Shown here: positions 329-6,185 of the stretch, in pieces
Layout: each line of letters begins with the position of its first letter
How positions within the stretch are numbered: the first letter of the stretch is position 1
Origin: Candidatus Multivoradales bacterium
GTDB lineage: Bacteria; Acidobacteriota; Thermoanaerobaculia; Multivoradales; JAHEKO01
NCBI GenBank assembly: GCA_965223155.1
Contig: CBDCVR010000013.1
Span: 1-64,000 of the forward strand
Reading direction: 5' to 3'
DNA length: 64,000 nt
Program-made: the position numbers and the translations under genes
Notes under the pieces: model-generated
What the model saw: only the letters and a program-made list of their open reading frames with translations
Told to the model about the DNA's origin: nothing
Database searches by the model: none

Positions 329-2257
329 TCAGGAACCGGGTTCCAGCAGAGAAGCCAGGCGCTCGAAGGTCTCGAGCGAGTCGGCGAGTCCTCCAGGCCG
401 GTTCCGTTCGAGCCACAGAACGCGCCGCCTCGAGGCGAGCGCGCGGGCGCGCTCGGCGAGCTCGCTTCGGGGCCCTTCCGGCAGCGCCGGGATCGCTGCC
501 GTGGGCGCCTCCAGCCGCATTCGGCCCATCGTAGCCGCCAGCGCCACGGCGTCGGCGGTCCAGCCGATCTCCGCGCGGGTTTGGTTGATCTCGTTGGGGC
601 CCTGTTCGTCCTCCGAGCTCCCATCGCCCGGAGCCGCCGCGGCGGCGAGCTCGAGGGCGCGGACTGCGGCCCGTTCGAGACCGTCGCTCGTCATGCCGCG
701 GTAGCGAGGGTGGTCGAGGCCGTCGCCGGGCGAGCCGAGCAGGTGGAACAGGGCGGTTCCGTTCTTCTGGGTGGCGCCCGTCTCCCGGTAGAGGTCGCCC
801 AGCTCTAGGAGCAGGGATCCGAGTCCGGAACCGGCTTGGCCGAGTACGTAACGGTCCACCGCGGCTGCCCAGTCCGGTCGCTCGGCGCCGCCGGCGTGCG
901 CGCCGTTCCAGGCCTGGCCCGCCGCCGCGACCAGAGCCGGATACGAGCTCGACAACGTCTGGAGATGGCCGCGGTCGCCCCATTCGGTCAGGAGGTAGCC
1001 GGTGGCGCCGGCGGCGCTACCGGCCTGTGCCGCCTGTTCGAGATTGGCCAGGGCGTTGCCGGTCCGTCCGGCGAGGCTCAGCCAGGTGGACGTGCCCGGG
1101 CAGACGTAGAGCGGGTTGGGAAGCTCGGCCAGAGTTGCCGCTTCGTCTTCGAACGGATGCCCGTCCTCGTAGCCCCAGAGGCAGAGCGTCACGTCCGGGG
1201 CAAGGCTCTCCAGGATGTCGCGATGCTTGAGCGGCATGTCGGCCCAGATCTGGAGGCTCCGGCCGTGCCGCCGGGCGAGGCCGCGGATCTGGTTCAGGAA
1301 GTTGGTCCAGACCGTCCCCAGCCCCTCGCGCTGGCAGCGCTCCCGGGAGCGCCCCCGGCCGATCTCGAAGGTCTCATCGAAGCCGGCGTGGAGGCGCCGG
1401 CTCGAGAAGTTGGGCAGGAGCTCCTCGTAGAGAGCCGCCATGAACTCGACTGCGGCCGGGTCGGTGGGGCACAGGCTGAAAGGCTCGATGGCGTTGCTGA
1501 ACGGATGCTCGATGCCGTCCGGACATTCGGCCAGGTGCCGGTAGCGTTCGTGCCGGAGCCAGCGGTGCAGATGCCCGAAGCTGTTCTGGTTCGGCACGAG
1601 CTCGATGCCGTGGCTCCGGCAGAACGCATCCAGCCGCCGGATCTCGTCTCCGGTCAGGGGATCGGCGTCGCGCCACACGGTCTCGTGCTCGCGGTAGGCG
1701 AAGGTGTGCTCCATGTAGAGCTGGAGCTGGTTGTACTTGAGGTCGGCCAGGACCTCGACCAGGCGGAAGAGTGTCTCGAGGGTCGGGACCTTGTTGCGGC
1801 TGACGTCCAGGAGCAGGCCGCGCTCGGCGAAGTCCGGCCGGTCGCGGATCTCGACCCGGCCCACCGCCAGGGGCTCGGTGGCGGAGGTCGATTCGAGTGG
1901 CGCGCCGCCGGCGTCGGCGGGCGACCGGTGGAGGTCGATCCAATGGGCCAGGGTTACCGCGCCGTGCCGGAACCCGGCGGCGTCGGCGGCGCGCAGGCGG
2001 ACGTCCCCTTCGGTTACGGTGAGCTCATACCCCTGCTCGGGTTGCTCTGAGTCGAGGGTCAGCTCGAGCGTGGGAGCCGTTGCCGCGGCCTCGGCAGGCG
2101 CCCGGTAGCTCGCCAGCCGCCGCTCGGCTCCCTGGACTAGAGTCTCGGGCGCTCCGAGGACCGGGCGCAAGCCGGACAGGCGGAGCGTTCCTTGCCGGGG
2201 AACCGCTGTTCTGGGTCTAGGGACCAGCGCGCGGAGACGCTCGGTGGAGGCGGTCAA
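329..2257 (-). CDS. Glycoside hydrolase family 20 (beta-N-acetylhexosaminidase-like)
   Basis: RGLLLDVSR, YNQLQLYMEH, IELVPNQNSFGH and HAGFDE (catalytic DE pair) motifs. ORF track starts at 2488, but that overlaps the divergent gene; TTG at 2257 is a more plausible, uncertain start. Confidence 0.85.
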   Translation of the reverse strand: MTASTERLRALVPRPRTAVPRQGTLRLSGLRPVLGAPETLVQGAERRLASYRAPAEAAATAPTLELTLDSEQPEQGYELTVTEGDVRLRAADAAGFRHGAVTLAHWIDLHRSPADAGGAPLESTSATEPLAVGRVEIRDRPDFAERGLLLDVSRNKVPTLETLFRLVEVLADLKYNQLQLYMEHTFAYREHETVWRDADPLTGDEIRRLDAFCRSHGIELVPNQNSFGHLHRWLRHERYRHLAECPDGIEHPFSNAIEPFSLCPTDPAAVEFMAALYEELLPNFSSRRLHAGFDETFEIGRGRSRERCQREGLGTVWTNFLNQIRGLARRHGRSLQIWADMPLKHRDILESLAPDVTLCLWGYEDGHPFEDEAATLAELPNPLYVCPGTSTWLSLAGRTGNALANLEQAAQAGSAAGATGYLLTEWGDRGHLQTLSSSYPALVAAAGQAWNGAHAGGAERPDWAAAVDRYVLGQAGSGLGSLLLELGDLYRETGATQKNGTALFHLLGSPGDGLDHPRYRGMTSDGLERAAVRALELAAAAAPGDGSSEDEQGPNEINQTRAEIGWTADAVALAATMGRMRLEAPTAAIPALPEGPRSELAERARALASRRRVLWLERNRPGGLADSLETFERLASLLEPGS

Positions 2258-2366
2258 CGGCGAGGCACGGAGGAGGTGGCGCGGGCGCGGCCGGCCGCGA
2301 GCGGCGGGGCGTGGAACACGCTCGGAGCTTAGCAGTCGGGTCGTGGGAGTGCGGTAGTCTTGCCCC

Positions 2367-3719
2367 ATGTCCGAGCTTGTCCTGATCGTCGATGACGAAC
2401 CCGGCATCCTGACCTCGCTGGCCAACGTGCTGGGCGATGAAGGCTTCCGCACGGTATGCACGGCGAGTGGAGCCGAAGCGCTCGACATCTACCGGCGCGA
2501 GCGTCCGGACGTGGTCTTTCTGGACGTCTGGCTGCCGGACCGGGACGGGCTCGAGACCTTGCAGTCCCTGCGTCTGGAGGATCCCACCGCCGCGGTCATC
2601 ATGATGTCGGGCCACGGCACCGCCTCGACCGCGGTCAAGGCGATCAAGATGGGGGCGCTCGACTACGTCGAAAAGCCGCTCTCGTACAACCAGGCGGTGC
2701 GCTCGGTGCAGGGAGCGCTCGAGTACCGGAGCTCGCTGACCCGGGATCAATCGCTGCTGGCGGCCGAAAGCCGGCCCGACCAGCGGCTGGCCGGCGACCA
2801 TTCCTTCGATCCGCCCGACGTGCCCTTGCTCGAGACCACCGACGTGCCCCAGCGCACCATCGCCCAGAACACCGTGCTCTACGGCCTCGGGCTCCACTCG
2901 GGCTCCCGCACCGGGATGGTGATCCAACCCTTGCCCCCGGATTCGGGCATCCACTTCGTGACCCTGCCGACCGACGACCACATCCCCGCGTTCGTGGGCT
3001 CGGTGGCCGAGACCTCCTACGCCACGACCTTGAGCTCGAGCCAGGTCGAGATCAAGACGGTCGAGCACTTCCTGTCGGCGTGCCACGCCCTGGGAGTGAC
3101 CAACGTCTTGGTCAAGGTCCACGGCGAGCTGCCGGTGCTGGATGGTTCATCGATCGAGTTCTGCCGCACCCTGGCGGAAACCGGCCTGGTCGACCAGGGC
3201 GTCAACCGCCGGGAGGTGGTGATCGACCGGACCTACACGGTCGAAGGCGACGGCGGCAAGCTGCTGACACTCGAGCCCGCGGACGGCTTCTCGGTCTCCT
3301 ACCAGCTCGACTATCCGCCGCCGGTGGGGGAGCAGAGCTACGACTACGGACCGCTCGAAGCCGGGTCCTACGAGCGGGAGATCGCTCCCGCTCGCACCTT
3401 CGGCTTCGTCAAGGATCTGGAAATGATGCGCGAGCTGGGCTTGGGCACCGGCGGCCGCTTCGACAACTGCATCCTGGTAGGCGAAGACGACGTCATCAAC
3501 ACGGAACTGCGCTTCCCGGACGAGTTCGTGCGCCACAAGATTCTGGACGTCATCGGGGACCTGTTTCTGCTCGGCTACCCGGTGCGCGGCAAGGTGACGG
3601 CGCATCGCACCGGCCACCGCGACAACATCGAGATCCTGCGCCGGGTGCTGGCCGCCAACGGTGCCGTGCTCCAACCGGCCGGCGCCGCCGACGTCGAGAA
3701 CGCCCGCGAGGACGCCTGA
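2367..3719 (+). CDS. lpxC: Fusion of N-terminal response-regulator receiver domain and UDP-3-O-acyl-GlcNAc deacetylase LpxC
   Basis: Receiver motifs LIVDDE, FLDVWLPD, MMSGHG, EKP in aa ~1-120. LpxC motifs QRTI..GLGLHSG, TVEHFLSA, ELPVLDGSS, ARTFGF, RFPDEFVRHKILD and TGHRDN follow, with no stop between the domains. Confidence 0.92.
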   Translation: MSELVLIVDDEPGILTSLANVLGDEGFRTVCTASGAEALDIYRRERPDVVFLDVWLPDRDGLETLQSLRLEDPTAAVIMMSGHGTASTAVKAIKMGALDYVEKPLSYNQAVRSVQGALEYRSSLTRDQSLLAAESRPDQRLAGDHSFDPPDVPLLETTDVPQRTIAQNTVLYGLGLHSGSRTGMVIQPLPPDSGIHFVTLPTDDHIPAFVGSVAETSYATTLSSSQVEIKTVEHFLSACHALGVTNVLVKVHGELPVLDGSSIEFCRTLAETGLVDQGVNRREVVIDRTYTVEGDGGKLLTLEPADGFSVSYQLDYPPPVGEQSYDYGPLEAGSYEREIAPARTFGFVKDLEMMRELGLGTGGRFDNCILVGEDDVINTELRFPDEFVRHKILDVIGDLFLLGYPVRGKVTAHRTGHRDNIEILRRVLAANGAVLQPAGAADVENAREDA

Positions 3720-3722
3720 CCG

Positions 3723-6185
3723 ATGGAGGTGCGCAAGCAGGACCGGCCCGAGCCGGCCGCTCAGTTCACCGCCGAAAGCATCGTCGGCGACTACCGCCTG
3801 GCCGTGCGCAGCCGCGAGGCCAGCCTGCTCGGCCGGCGCGAGGTGTTCTCGGGCAAGGCCAAGTTCGGCATCTTTGGTGACGGCAAGGAAGTGGCCCAGG
3901 TGGCCCTGGCCCGCGCCTTTCGGCCGGGCGACGTCCGCAGCGGCTACTACCGGGACCAGACGCTGCTGATGGCCCTGGGCGTGCTCACCGTCGAGCAGCT
4001 CTTCGCCCAGCTGTACGCCGATCCCGACCCGAAGCGAGAGCCGGCCTCGGGCGGGCGTCAGATGACGGCCCATTTCGCCACCCACTTCCTGGACGAGACC
4101 GGCGCCTGGACCCGGCTGGTGGACGCGGTTCATTCCTCGGCGGACGTGTCGCCGACCGGATCCCAGATGCCGCGTCTGGTCGGACTGGCCCAGGCGTCGC
4201 GCCTCTACCGCGATCTCGAGGGGCTAGAGGACTTCGACGGCTTCTCGCGCAATGGCGACGAGATCGCCTTTGGCACCATCGGCAACGCCAGTTGCGCCGA
4301 GGGCTTGTTCTGGGAGTCGATCAACGCGGCCGGGGTCCTGCGGGCTCCGATGCTGCTGTCGATCTGGGACGACGGTTTCGGGATCTCGGTGCCCAACGAG
4401 CTTCAGGTCACCAAGGGCGATCTCTCGGAGTTGCTGCGTGGCTTCCGCCGCGGTCCGGGAGAGGCGTCCGGATTCGATCTCTATACCTGCAAGGGCTGGG
4501 ACTACGCGGCCCTGTGCGAGACCTATCTCAACGCCGCCGAGATCGTCCGGCGCGAGCATGTGCCGGCGATCGTTCACGTGCGCGAGGTCACCCAGCCGCA
4601 GGGACACTCGACCTCGGGCAGCCACGAGCGCTACAAGTCGCCCGAGCGGTTGGCCTGGGAAGACGAGTACGACTGCATCAAGCGCATGCGCGCCTGGATG
4701 ATCGAGCAGGGAATCGCCGGCGCCGACGCCCTTGACGAGGTCGAGGCCGAAGAGCGCAAGTCGGTCCGCGAGGCCCAGCGCCGGGCCTGGGACGCCTTCC
4801 GGTCCGAGGTCGAGACCGAGCGAGAGGAAGCGCTCTCGCTGGTGGTTCCGGTCCGGGAGGCGGCCGGCGACTCCGAGGCCCTGGCCTCGATCGAGACGGC
4901 ACTCCGGCGCCAGCCCAACCTGGCCCGCCGCGATCTCCTGAGCGCGGCCGCCGAGGTCCTGGTGTTGACCCAGGGCGACGCCGGCCCCGAGCGCGCCCGG
5001 CTGGCGGCGTGGCACCGGAGCCATCATCAGGCCGGGCTCGAGCGCTACGGCTCGGATCTCTACGCCGAGGGCGCGCGCTCCGCCCTGGCGGTGCCTCCGG
5101 TTGCCGCCGAGTATTCGGAACGGGGCGCCGAAGCGGGTGAAGCCGGTGGAGGCAGCGCCTCCGAGACCGCCCGTGAGGTCAACGGCTTCGAGATTCTGAA
5201 TGCCTGCTTCGACCAGGCCCTGGCCCGCTATCCCAACCTGGTGGCCTTCGGCGAGGACGTGGGCAAGCTGGGCGACGTCAACCAGGGCATGGCCGGCTTG
5301 CAGGAGAAGTACGGCGAGCTGCGCGTCGCGGACACCGGCATTCGCGAGGCCACGATCCTGGGCCAGGCCATCGGGCTGGCGATGCGGGGCTTTCGGCCCA
5401 TCGCCGAGATTCAGTACCTGGACTACCTGCTCTACGCGCTACAGATCCTGTCCGACGATCTGGCGACCCTGCGCTGGCGTACCCGGGCGCGGCAGTGCGC
5501 GCCGGTCATCGTGCGCACTCGCGGTCACCGGCTCGAGGGAATCTGGCACTCGGGCTCGGAGATGGGCGGCATCTTGAACCTCATCCGAGGCATGTACCTG
5601 TGCGTGCCGCGCAACATGACCCAAGCCGCGGGCATGTACAACACCCTGCTCCAGGCCGACGATCCGGCACTGGTGGTCGAGGTGCTGAACGGCTACCGGG
5701 CGAAGGAAGCCCTGCCGGCCAACGTGGGCGAGTTCACCGTGCCCCTGGGCGTGCCCGAGGTCCTGCGCGCCGGAAGCGATGTCACGCTGGTGACCTACGG
5801 TGCCTGCTGCAAGATCGCGCTGGCGGCGAGCTCTCTCTTGGAGCACGCGGGCATCGATGTCGAGGTGATCGACGTCCAGACCCTGCTGCCGTTCGATTGC
5901 GGCTCTGAGATCAAGACTTCGCTCGAGAAGACCGGGCACATCGTGTTCGTGGACGAGGACGTGCCGGGCGGCGCCACCGCCTACATGATGCAGCAGGCGC
6001 TGATCGAGCAGGGCGGATTCGACTGGCTGGACGCCGAGCCCGTACTGGTCTCCGGCAAGGCCCATCGTCCGCCCTACGGTTCGGACGGCGACTACTTCGC
6101 CAAGCCTAGCCGCGAGGCGATCTTCGAGGCCGTCTACGGCCTCATGCACCGGAGCGATCCGGCCCGGTTCCCCGAGTTTTCCTGA
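3723..6185 (+). CDS. 2-oxoacid (branched-chain type) dehydrogenase E1, fused alpha+beta subunits
   Basis: Alpha-like motifs GYYRDQ, GNASCAEG, GHSTSG; beta-like FGEDVG, DTGIRE, RPIAEIQY and transketolase C-terminal EVIDVQTL. Confidence 0.9.
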   Translation: MEVRKQDRPEPAAQFTAESIVGDYRLAVRSREASLLGRREVFSGKAKFGIFGDGKEVAQVALARAFRPGDVRSGYYRDQTLLMALGVLTVEQLFAQLYADPDPKREPASGGRQMTAHFATHFLDETGAWTRLVDAVHSSADVSPTGSQMPRLVGLAQASRLYRDLEGLEDFDGFSRNGDEIAFGTIGNASCAEGLFWESINAAGVLRAPMLLSIWDDGFGISVPNELQVTKGDLSELLRGFRRGPGEASGFDLYTCKGWDYAALCETYLNAAEIVRREHVPAIVHVREVTQPQGHSTSGSHERYKSPERLAWEDEYDCIKRMRAWMIEQGIAGADALDEVEAEERKSVREAQRRAWDAFRSEVETEREEALSLVVPVREAAGDSEALASIETALRRQPNLARRDLLSAAAEVLVLTQGDAGPERARLAAWHRSHHQAGLERYGSDLYAEGARSALAVPPVAAEYSERGAEAGEAGGGSASETAREVNGFEILNACFDQALARYPNLVAFGEDVGKLGDVNQGMAGLQEKYGELRVADTGIREATILGQAIGLAMRGFRPIAEIQYLDYLLYALQILSDDLATLRWRTRARQCAPVIVRTRGHRLEGIWHSGSEMGGILNLIRGMYLCVPRNMTQAAGMYNTLLQADDPALVVEVLNGYRAKEALPANVGEFTVPLGVPEVLRAGSDVTLVTYGACCKIALAASSLLEHAGIDVEVIDVQTLLPFDCGSEIKTSLEKTGHIVFVDEDVPGGATAYMMQQALIEQGGFDWLDAEPVLVSGKAHRPPYGSDGDYFAKPSREAIFEAVYGLMHRSDPARFPEFS

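Follow-up and report, generated by a model that had tools for sequence, protein, structure and literature searches.

A receiver domain joined to LpxC

We describe a gene that joins a two-component receiver domain to LpxC, found in a 64,000-nucleotide stretch of DNA (the window) from a Candidatus Multivoradales bacterium (Acidobacteriota; Thermoanaerobaculia; GenBank assembly GCA_965223155.1, contig CBDCVR010000013.1, positions 1 to 64,000 of the forward strand). LpxC, an antibiotic target, catalyses the step that commits the cell to lipid A synthesis and that is the most tightly regulated of the pathway. Its known controls are proteolysis (FtsH/LapB/PbgA, or Lon) and, in a few species, transcription. 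A receiver carried by the sole LpxC of whole lineages would constitute a third mode of control, namely direct two-component phosphorylation.

The gene, here called REC-lpxC (REC for receiver), occupies positions 2367-3719 of the plus strand (Table 1), and its 450-aa open reading frame (ORF) opens with MSELVLIVDDEP. The Pfam families Response_reg (PF00072; E 3.6e-29, 101.6 bits against a cut-off of 30.2) and LpxC (PF03331; E 4.3e-83, 279 bits against a cut-off of 27) cover its two parts. The NCBIfam lpxC equivalog TIGR00325 is likewise matched above its cut-off (237 bits against 187). PF03331 has no second match in the window's genome (G000, an assembly of 4.0 Mb in 15 contigs and 98.66% complete), where family searches also find LpxB, the LpxA C-terminal domain and LpxK. 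An earlier sequence-only reading of the window had described one ORF joining a receiver to LpxC, had listed the motifs DD, FLDVW, Ser and EKP in the first and EH, HKILD and GH in the second, and had noted that no cognate kinase gene is adjacent. Both domains lie in a single stop-free frame, every one of these motifs is present, no kinase gene adjoins REC-lpxC within the window, and the question of whether this is the genome's only lpxC is answered in the affirmative.

Table 1. Coordinates of REC-lpxC, its parts and neighbours, and the related loci discussed in the text. Positions are those of the window unless a locus is named; C13 positions belong to the window's genome and lie outside the window.
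Feature	Position (nt)	Strand	Basis or detail
REC-lpxC gene, sole lpxC of the genome	2367..3719	+	450 aa plus stop, ATG start
Receiver (REC) domain, NtrX-like, residues 5-111	2379..2699	+	Pfam, NCBIfam, alignment invariance, NtrX signatures
Acidic pocket D9/D10 of the receiver	2391-2396	+	Motif VDDEP
Phospho-acceptor D53 of the receiver	2523-2525	+	Motif FLDVW; W55 alongside
S81 of the receiver	2607-2609	+	Motif MMSGH
K103-P104 of the receiver	2673-2678	+	Motif EKP
Linker, residues 112-161	2700..2849	+	AlphaFold2 model, alignment, comparison with triple fusions
LpxC deacetylase domain, residues 162-428	2850..3650	+	Pfam, NCBIfam, alignment, structure matches
E233-H234 of LpxC	3063-3068	+	Alignment
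H390/K391/D394/D398 of LpxC	3534-3560	+	Motif HKILD at 390-394
H417 of LpxC (G416-H417)	3615-3617	+	Alignment
C-terminal tail, residues 429-450	3651..3716	+	Alignment, AlphaFold2 model
GH20 hexosaminidase, longest ORF	329-2488	-	Upstream, divergent
Fused E1 dehydrogenase	3723-6185	+	820 aa, downstream
DUF4390 gene	G000:C13:1231908-1232327		PF14334
NtrY-type kinase gene	G000:C13:1232405-1234576		NtrY_N/HAMP/PAS/HisKA/HATPase_c
L122, orphan sigma54 regulator	G000:C13:245310-246644		REC-AAA-HTH_8
REC-AAA-LpxC triple fusion	L062:759-2975		
REC-AAA-LpxC triple fusion	L063:3786-6014		743 aa
REC-AAA-LpxC triple fusion	L065:4690-6822		
REC-AAA-LpxC triple fusion	L066:4711-6831		

The upstream neighbour is a GH20 hydrolase on the minus strand, whose longest ORF overlaps the start of REC-lpxC by about 120 nt. 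Since its Pfam match begins at residue 88, the true start probably lies further downstream, which would leave a divergent intergenic region. The downstream neighbour begins 3 nt past the lpxC stop and joins an alpha-like E1_dh part to a beta-like part with Transket_pyr and Transketolase_C. We considered this E1 dehydrogenase as a functional partner and rejected it, as it adjoins REC-lpxC solely in close kin (L003-L007 and L012; at a distance in L033 and L051).

Reality and spread of the fusion

The fusion is found widely. A script sorted 121 loci into classes, REC-LpxC being assigned by a filter that asked for one high-scoring segment pair (HSP) and no stop. This gave 57 stop-free, independently assembled REC-LpxC loci (the window included), four REC-AAA-LpxC loci and 60 with LpxC only. 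L044 and L054 look fused, failed the filter and are outside the 57, while L056 and L067 are cut by contig ends and were excluded from the fused-protein alignment. Both Pfam domains are present in all 120 of the top database homologs listed (64-100% identity), which come from Thermoanaerobaculia or Acidobacteriota metagenome-assembled genomes (MAGs) and are named plain LpxC in their source records.

A near-full-length match occurs in 34 of the 41 closest genomes and fragments or split matches in four more (G007, G009, G021 and G024); two (G027 and G031) have an unfused LpxC, and an LpxC-grade match is absent from one (G036). Across the phylum, 301 genomes were sampled: the full-length fusion occurs in 23, none of which has a second LpxC-grade match, 264 hold LpxC-only-grade matches (best E about 1e-65 to 1e-39) and 14 have no match at E ≤ 1e-35. 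Beyond the phylum, species-representative genomes were scanned, and records with the fusion bear the labels Thermodesulfobacteriota, Syntrophorhabdus, Desulfopila sp. IMCC35006 and Desulfocapsaceae; further labels in the same scan were Myxococcota, Oligoflexales, Leptospirales, Nitrospirota and Holophagae. Some of the genomes are unpublished. G005 (fused) and G063 (unfused; L032 and L158) enter the tallies of relatives, kinases and sigma54 elements as well as both trees, and G063, G088 and G189 enter the 301-genome tally; the conclusions do not depend on unpublished genomes alone.

A few records deserve separate mention. In G036 (8.0 Mb, 94% complete; kinase locus L155), the fused-protein query finds a receiver only (best E 1.2e-21), and the DUF4390-NtrY pair described below is present and orphaned; this genome represents either an assembly gap or a lineage without LpxC. 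The REC-LpxC match is split into two overlapping or adjacent pieces at G024:C1:71515-72820 and L054:6460-7276, where a frameshift, a pseudogene or a sequencing error is possible. Two short contigs, L062 (3.2 kb, labelled Promethearchaeota archaeon) and L055 (4.4 kb, labelled uncultured Enterobacteriaceae), carry a bacterial fused-type LpxC that groups in the tree with rows of Thermodesulfobacteriota and Deltaproteobacteria, and are probably mis-binned.

The junction between the two domains is continuous in public reads assembled as Logan contigs. Contigs from four runs (three samples, one study), the best of which may be the window's own source sample, match the window without substitutions or indels; one contig of 1664 nt corresponds to 2624-4200, and other pieces cross 2637-2924. 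The stop or frameshift that could have separated the domains was thus not seen. No RNA run was among those listed as matching. One X2 contig shows an apparent 67-nt skip from 2399 to 2467, supported on one side by only 21 nt, and was treated as noise or as another organism.

Integrity and structure of both domains

Conservation was assessed on an alignment of 64 fused proteins from several phyla, 37-100% identical to the window protein. In the receiver, D9, D10, D53, W55, G82, H83, E102, K103 and P104 are invariant in all 64 proteins and S81 is at least 90% conserved; the phospho-site is complete and under strong purifying selection across phyla. In the LpxC part, E233, H234, H390, K391, D394, D398, H417 and N420 are likewise invariant, and the zinc and catalytic residues line up with identical columns of P. 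aeruginosa LpxC (6mo5). We take these residues to be the equivalents of E. coli H79, H238, D242, E78 and H265. The LpxC part aligns end to end with the solved enzymes of P. aeruginosa, E. coli and A. aeolicus (E 2e-54 to 1e-46), and the solved relatives of the receiver include NtrX (4d6x and 5m7n) together with NtrC-family receivers.

An AlphaFold2 (AF2) model built on the fused-protein alignment (predicted local distance difference test, pLDDT, 89.3; predicted template-modelling score, pTM, 0.87) contains a (beta-alpha)5 receiver, with five alternating strands and helices over residues 4-126. Its alpha5 helix is extended (107-126) and is followed by a helix at 129-134 and by a low-confidence linker stretch of about 20 residues (~135-154). 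Against solved LpxC structures, Foldseek gives a target-normalised TM of 0.84-0.95 and a root-mean-square deviation of 1.3-2.5 Å, that is, the LpxC fold. The C-terminal tail is unconserved in the alignment, most relatives stopping near residue 433, and residues 439-450 are disordered in the model (pLDDT < 50); neither alignment nor model makes a conserved C-terminal degron evident in the tail. The pTM of 0.87 hints at a fixed packing of receiver against enzyme, which would fit direct control. A complex prediction of LpxC (155-435) with REC (1-135), run without controls, scored 0.00 and speaks neither for nor against binding. Both domains look functional on these grounds, and deacetylase activity on UDP-3-O-acyl-GlcNAc is predicted for the LpxC domain.

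An NtrX-like receiver

The receiver resembles that of NtrX, the response regulator partnered with the kinase NtrY. Its best NCBIfam receiver-type match is NtrX (NF051870, E 7.3e-31). Among genomic matches to the receiver alone, the best are the kinase-adjacent NtrX proteins of G027 and G031 (455-aa ORFs; 113 and 107 bits, 48% and 45% identity to the fused protein), all other receivers reaching at most 93 bits; these ORFs lie 3-4 kb from the unfused lpxC of the same genomes. Mean receiver identity is 46.5% between fused proteins and NtrX, compared with 35.1% between fused proteins and the paralogs of the window's genome. Fused and NtrX receivers have in common DEG at the end of alpha1, LD[IV]W, SGH and D[FY]xEKP, a combination absent from all eight other NtrC-type regulators of the window's genome. 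These signatures sit in or beside the kinase-contact regions of receivers. In a receiver tree, the fused, triple-fusion and NtrX receivers fall into one 52-row group (SH-like approximate likelihood ratio test, SH-aLRT, 91), with six of the eight paralogs outside it.

What follows the receiver differs. REC-LpxC lacks the sigma54 AAA+ domain (Walker A/B, GAFTGA), and Pfam, which reports Response_reg and LpxC alone, gives no match to the HTH_8 (Fis-type) DNA-binding domain. The protein is thus a derivative, and not a member, of the NtrX/NtrC sigma54 regulators. From these comparisons we regard the receiver as NtrX-like and as apparently derived from an NtrX-type regulator.

An orphaned DUF4390-NtrY pair

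The unfused relatives G027 and G031 point to a candidate kinase. Their loci comprise lpxC, DUF4390, a HAMP-PAS-HisKA-HATPase kinase of about 745 aa and a REC-Sigma54_activat-HTH_8 regulator. The window's genome has exactly one DUF4390 gene, directly followed by an NtrY-type kinase that is an ortholog of the unfused-operon kinase (47% identical over its full length). The genes after this kinase are yqeY and selB, with no regulator, and an NtrX-grade ortholog was found neither in this genome nor in the fused genome G001 of the same genus. With the kinase kept and no NtrX ortholog found in the fused genomes examined, the kinase is orphaned.

Of 73 genomes searched systematically, 72 have the kinase ortholog with an intact ORF. 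The next gene downstream of it is a regulator in 16 of 17 unfused genomes (the exception being G146) as against one of 49 fused genomes (G291), and the kinase locus has lpxC on its upstream side in 16 of 17 unfused as against none of 51 fused genomes. The downstream-regulator count drops G002 and G016 (fused) and G009 (fragment-only), where under 600 nt follow the kinase; all these counts omit G021 (61% complete, without a kinase match) and G319 (paralog-grade kinase match only). Contrasts within families agree, both in f4 (G027 unfused, G038 fused) and in f17 (G180 and G202, respectively). The H-box/DHp helix of the kinase, AHEIKNPLTPIxLxAER, is the same in the fused and unfused groups.

Elsewhere, the kinase and the fused gene are found side by side. 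In L053, from a MAG labelled Deltaproteobacteria, REC-LpxC is immediately preceded by an NtrY-type kinase, and in L063 such a kinase lies 23 nt upstream of REC-AAA-LpxC. In L069, a stand-alone REC, ended by a true stop, is followed by LpxC, DUF4390, an NtrY kinase and NtrX. Judging from this gene order and orthology, the orphan NtrY-type kinase of the window's genome is the likely kinase of REC-LpxC.

Sigma54 elements upstream of lpxC

The loss of the regulator goes along with a difference in predicted promoters. We scanned 300 nt upstream with a home-made, weighted sigma54 -24/-12 consensus in which GG and GC were required. All 17 of the unfused lpxC-DUF4390-ntrY-ntrX operons, which cover six family codes plus L089, score at least 12, and 13 of them at least 13; these elements are found 38-111 nt ahead of the QRT codon, and the start codon follows the element by about 15-35 nt. 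Fused genes reach these scores in five and one of 56 cases (the window's best is 11.5), and triple fusions in one and none of four. As 8.4% of 2000 random windows score at least 12 (1.4% at least 13), the sigma54 element is at background upstream of fused genes. The orphan DUF4390-kinase operons score at least 12 in seven of 42 cases, that of the window's genome scoring 11.

Sigma54-like elements also occur before other unfused lpxC genes. A score of at least 12 is found in 22 of 41, as against the 8.4% of random windows, with Vicinamibacterales, Myxococcota, Nitrospirota and Methylomirabilota among them but not Burkholderiaceae; examples are L073, L075, L076, L078, L091, L092, L102, L107 and L109, with TGGCAC-N5-TTGC-like elements 40-145 nt before lpxC. 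Sigma54-dependent transcription of lpxC may therefore be widespread, and common outside Proteobacteria. The predicted elements fit two reports, both known to us from excerpts: in D. vulgaris, lpxC is the single mapped target of the sigma54-type regulator DVU2934 (PMC3333781), and in Leptospira a sigma54 promoter is predicted before lpxC (PMC12655853).

A probable route from NtrX and lpxC to REC-LpxC

Four loci preserve what may be intermediates. L062, L063, L065 and L066 encode REC-Sigma54_activat-lid-LpxC in single ORFs of 707-743 aa, without the HTH. Walker A, GAFTGA and Walker B are all retained in NtrX of G031 and G027, whereas none of the four triple fusions still has GAFTGA or the Walker B DE. 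Their AAA+ module is thus vestigial, as expected of intermediates between an NtrX-lpxC pair and REC-LpxC. The linker of REC-LpxC sits where the decayed AAA+ module sits in these relatives.

The LpxC domain has a history of its own. In a tree of 68 LpxC domains, a branch with SH-aLRT 100 splits 37 fused and triple-fusion rows from 31 unfused rows; the unfused side holds LpxC from the same order and the same class as the window, and the triple fusions nest in the fused side. Approximately unbiased (AU) tests, on clades named after the tree was seen, reject a single clade of same-class fused and unfused rows (delta lnL 326.8, p 1.5e-39) and a single clade of all Acidobacteriota rows (delta lnL 153.6, p 1.1e-8). 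It follows that the fused type replaced the native lpxC or that an old paralog was differentially retained. In G335, G336 and G337, no LpxC match other than the fused or triple-fusion gene is present. The most divergent fused subclade (L057-L061, L064, L067 and L068, including G334 and G338) carries about 10 extra residues behind the position of window residue 216, with AGI replacing GTx after SGH.

Based on these forms, the fusion probably arose from a kinase/NtrX/lpxC gene order through REC-AAA-LpxC to REC-LpxC. In the proposed route, loss of the HTH and of the stop codon would have produced REC-AAA-LpxC, decay and deletion of the AAA+ module would then have left REC-LpxC, and REC-LpxC would have gone on to displace the native lpxC and ntrX.

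Proposed control of the enzyme

We read REC-LpxC as a response regulator with LpxC as its output, in which the orphan NtrY-type kinase would phosphorylate D53 and so tune lipid A flux; we put the probability of this reading at roughly 0.6. Direct phosphorylation of the enzyme would then have replaced the sigma54/NtrX transcriptional control of lpxC, and an envelope-linked kinase probably controls outer-membrane lipid synthesis at the enzyme and not via gene expression. The proposal made in the sequence-only reading, that two-component phosphorylation may gate lipopolysaccharide synthesis, is supported as far as sequence can go.

In the proposed mechanism, a periplasm-facing DUF4390/NtrY sensor would bring about phosphorylation of D53, and the phosphorylated receiver would tune LpxC post-translationally and, with it, lipid A flux. 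A sign can also be predicted. Sigma54 promoters are off without a phosphorylated activator, so that the ancestral logic would have been that phosphorylation switches lpxC on. By analogy with CheB, in which the unphosphorylated receiver restrains the enzyme, the unphosphorylated receiver of REC-LpxC is predicted to restrain LpxC and phosphorylation to relieve the restraint.

Published work, as far as the excerpts at hand go, already ties NtrYX to lpxC. In R. sphaeroides and C. crescentus, lpxC transcript levels respond to NtrYX (PMC12444477, PMC7240162), and the first of these sources, a JBC 2025 review of lipid A regulation, describes transcriptional control of lpxC by both NtrYX and ChvGI. 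For DUF4390/PlrP, a role as periplasmic third component of NtrYX-family systems was put forward in 2026 (PMC13001219, likewise in excerpt). A fuller scenario would make REC-LpxC the terminal output of a three-part envelope-sensing pathway from DUF4390/PlrP through NtrY to the receiver, setting flux within seconds, evolved from an lpxC-activating NtrX via REC-(dead AAA+)-LpxC, spread between phyla and having displaced native lpxC and ntrX. We hold this scenario tentatively, at somewhat short of even odds.

Several points weigh against the proposed pairing and its history. In the window's genome, about 1.23 Mb of contig C13 separates the kinase from REC-lpxC, and their pairing rests on comparative inference; the genomes compared are related and not independent, so that the contrast of 16/17 with 1/49 reflects few evolutionary events. 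Exceptions occur in both directions: G291 (L028 and L191) is fused yet keeps NtrX beside the kinase, possibly as a transitional or branched state, and G146 (L172) has an unfused LpxC yet an orphan DUF4390-kinase pair. In the f54 clade, matches to the kinase are only 27-31% identical and mostly without a detectable DUF4390, and here (L014, L016, L017 and L019) another, shorter kinase is encoded together with an NtrC-type regulator some 1.4 kb ahead of REC-lpxC, in the same orientation, as an alternative local two-component partner in that clade. In the receiver tree, the fused receivers are not exclusively sister to NtrX, since L122, L127 and L069u share the polytomous base of the 52-row group. 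The receiver of L122, an orphan regulator taken up below, is as close to NtrX as the fusion is (48.3% and 46.5%, respectively) and falls in the same polytomy, and L122 could be the partner of the kinase instead of, or besides, REC-LpxC. The fused gene stands beside a canonical LpxC in Desulfopila (G334) and in a Nitrospirota MAG (G338), where its role may accordingly differ, as that of an accessory paralog. Both trees are products of 'quick' searches, the AU-test clades were chosen with the tree in view, and the sigma54 scan is not a trained model. Finally, the excerpted text of PMC7240162 reports that loss of NtrYX in R. sphaeroides raises lpxC mRNA 8.8-fold, an indirect effect whose sign is opposite to the one predicted here.

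Other readings of the same protein have to be set beside this one. In the first, the phosphorylated receiver controls the abundance or assembly of LpxC and not its catalysis, either by gating proteolysis, LpxC turnover being the point of control in E. coli, or by dimerisation through the alpha4-beta5-alpha5 face and the extended alpha5. NtrC-family receivers with an extended alpha5 dimerise. The helix at 107-126 is extended in the same way and the phospho-site is intact, as this alternative would have it. Proteolysis is the main control of LpxC in proteobacteria, according to excerpts of PMC12444477. A weaker point is that the LapB zinc-ribbon PF18073, a model of 28 positions, was not found in the window's genome, a negative that is uninformative because the same search matched 10 of 14 control genomes, Gram-positives included. 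The observations fit control of catalysis and control of stability alike; the C-terminal tail is unconserved, and the fixed packing at which the pTM hints would suit direct control. We consider control of abundance or assembly unlikely.

In the second, another kinase or acetyl phosphate serves the receiver, and the orphan DUF4390-NtrY kinase signals instead to L122, an orphan sigma54 regulator of the window's genome. L122 is the closest paralog of NtrX there (49% over its full length); its neighbours are a DegP/HtrA-like protease (Trypsin_2 plus PDZ) and a phosphoribosyltransferase and include no kinase, and it is kept in both fused and unfused relatives. The genome offers at least 14 kinase-like matches, and the f54 clade shows that a different kinase-regulator pair can stand beside REC-lpxC. 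Against this, L122 lacks the W55, DEG and SGH signatures common to the fusion and NtrX. Its orthologs occupy separate loci in unfused genomes (56-71% identity), distinct from the kinase-adjacent NtrX (49-52%) with which they coexist, so that L122 does not represent the displaced NtrX. In L053 and L063, an NtrY-type kinase directly precedes the fused gene, and the orphan kinase operons are without the consistent sigma54 promoter that autoregulation of the L122 type would need. This second reading seems rather improbable to us.

Far less probable is a receiver that is a phosphorylation-independent appendage on a constitutive enzyme. Pseudo-receivers exist in other families, and the absence of a kinase gene next to REC-lpxC in the window's genome would suit one here. 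However, pseudo-receivers typically lose phospho-site residues, whereas D9, D10, D53, K103 and P104 are invariant, and S81 nearly so, in 64 proteins from several phyla. That the fusion is an artefact of assembly or gene calling joining two genes can be dismissed for practical purposes: the window yields nothing in its favour, only G024 (overlapping pieces) and L054 (two HSPs) show breaks and only L069 a true stop between a stand-alone REC and LpxC, set against a stop-free frame in 57 loci, both domains in all the top homologs listed and public contigs that cross the junction without indels.

If REC-LpxC is indeed under the orphan NtrY-type kinase, the consequences extend beyond this lineage. 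The series, which starts at an lpxC operon driven by sigma54/NtrX and leads via REC-deadAAA-LpxC to REC-LpxC and an orphaned PlrP-NtrY pair, names the probable kinase and could serve as a natural 'Rosetta stone' tying NtrYX-family systems to lipid A homeostasis. Should the three-part pathway hold, control of lpxC would be a core, ancient function of NtrYX-family systems, and this would offer an explanation for the envelope phenotypes of NtrYX, and possibly its essentiality, elsewhere. It makes testable what NtrY/PlrS-type sensors monitor and why their mutants show envelope defects.

Comparison with known systems

We found no description of a receiver-LpxC protein in the full-text literature, a search whose coverage leaves out most subscription journals; the terms 'receiver' and 'fusion' are likewise absent from the excerpted text of the JBC 2025 review of lipid A regulation (PMC12444477). 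As the architecture is visible in precomputed Pfam annotations, REC-LpxC is undescribed rather than unseen. It would be new in two respects, as a response regulator whose enzymatic output is of a new kind and as a new mode of LpxC control.

Fusions of LpxC as such are known. The LpxC-FabZ family (NF009667) also has LpxC as one fusion domain and matches REC-LpxC through the LpxC part only; at 195 bits against a cut-off of 465, REC-LpxC is not a member. The partner in LpxC-FabZ is a C-terminal enzyme of the pathway, whereas here it is an N-terminal signalling domain. Compared with canonical LpxC, controlled by FtsH/LapB/PbgA in E. coli and by Lon or transcription elsewhere, REC-LpxC is the same enzyme, with the same fold, catalytic residues and committed, regulated step. 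It differs in its N-terminal receiver, its unconserved C-terminal tail and its separate LpxC lineage.

A further related system is DVU2934 of D. vulgaris, which, in the excerpts of PMC3333781, provides an NtrC-class receiver dedicated to lpxC; the unfused relatives described here, with a sigma54 element before lpxC and an activator in the operon, follow the same pattern. DVU2934 acts on transcription and in trans, whereas the receiver of REC-LpxC is covalently joined to the enzyme. The NtrY/NtrX (PlrP-PlrS-PlrR) systems have the same NtrX-type receiver signatures, and the window's genome keeps a PlrP-like DUF4390 directly upstream of its NtrY-type kinase. In alphaproteobacteria, NtrYX has been linked to lpxC expression and envelope composition, according to excerpts of PMC12444477, PMC7240162 and PMC13001219. 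Unlike these systems, REC-LpxC has no sigma54 AAA+ or HTH domain and its output is an enzyme instead of transcription; the kinase gene of the window's genome is unlinked and has no adjoining NtrX-type regulator.

An architectural parallel is CheB, and with it PleD and RpfG. As in these proteins, an N-terminal receiver is followed in REC-LpxC by a flexible linker and a C-terminal catalytic domain. The difference lies in what the catalytic domain does: the output of CheB, PleD and RpfG is an enzyme of signalling or adaptation, whereas that of REC-LpxC is the zinc amidase of an essential biosynthetic pathway.

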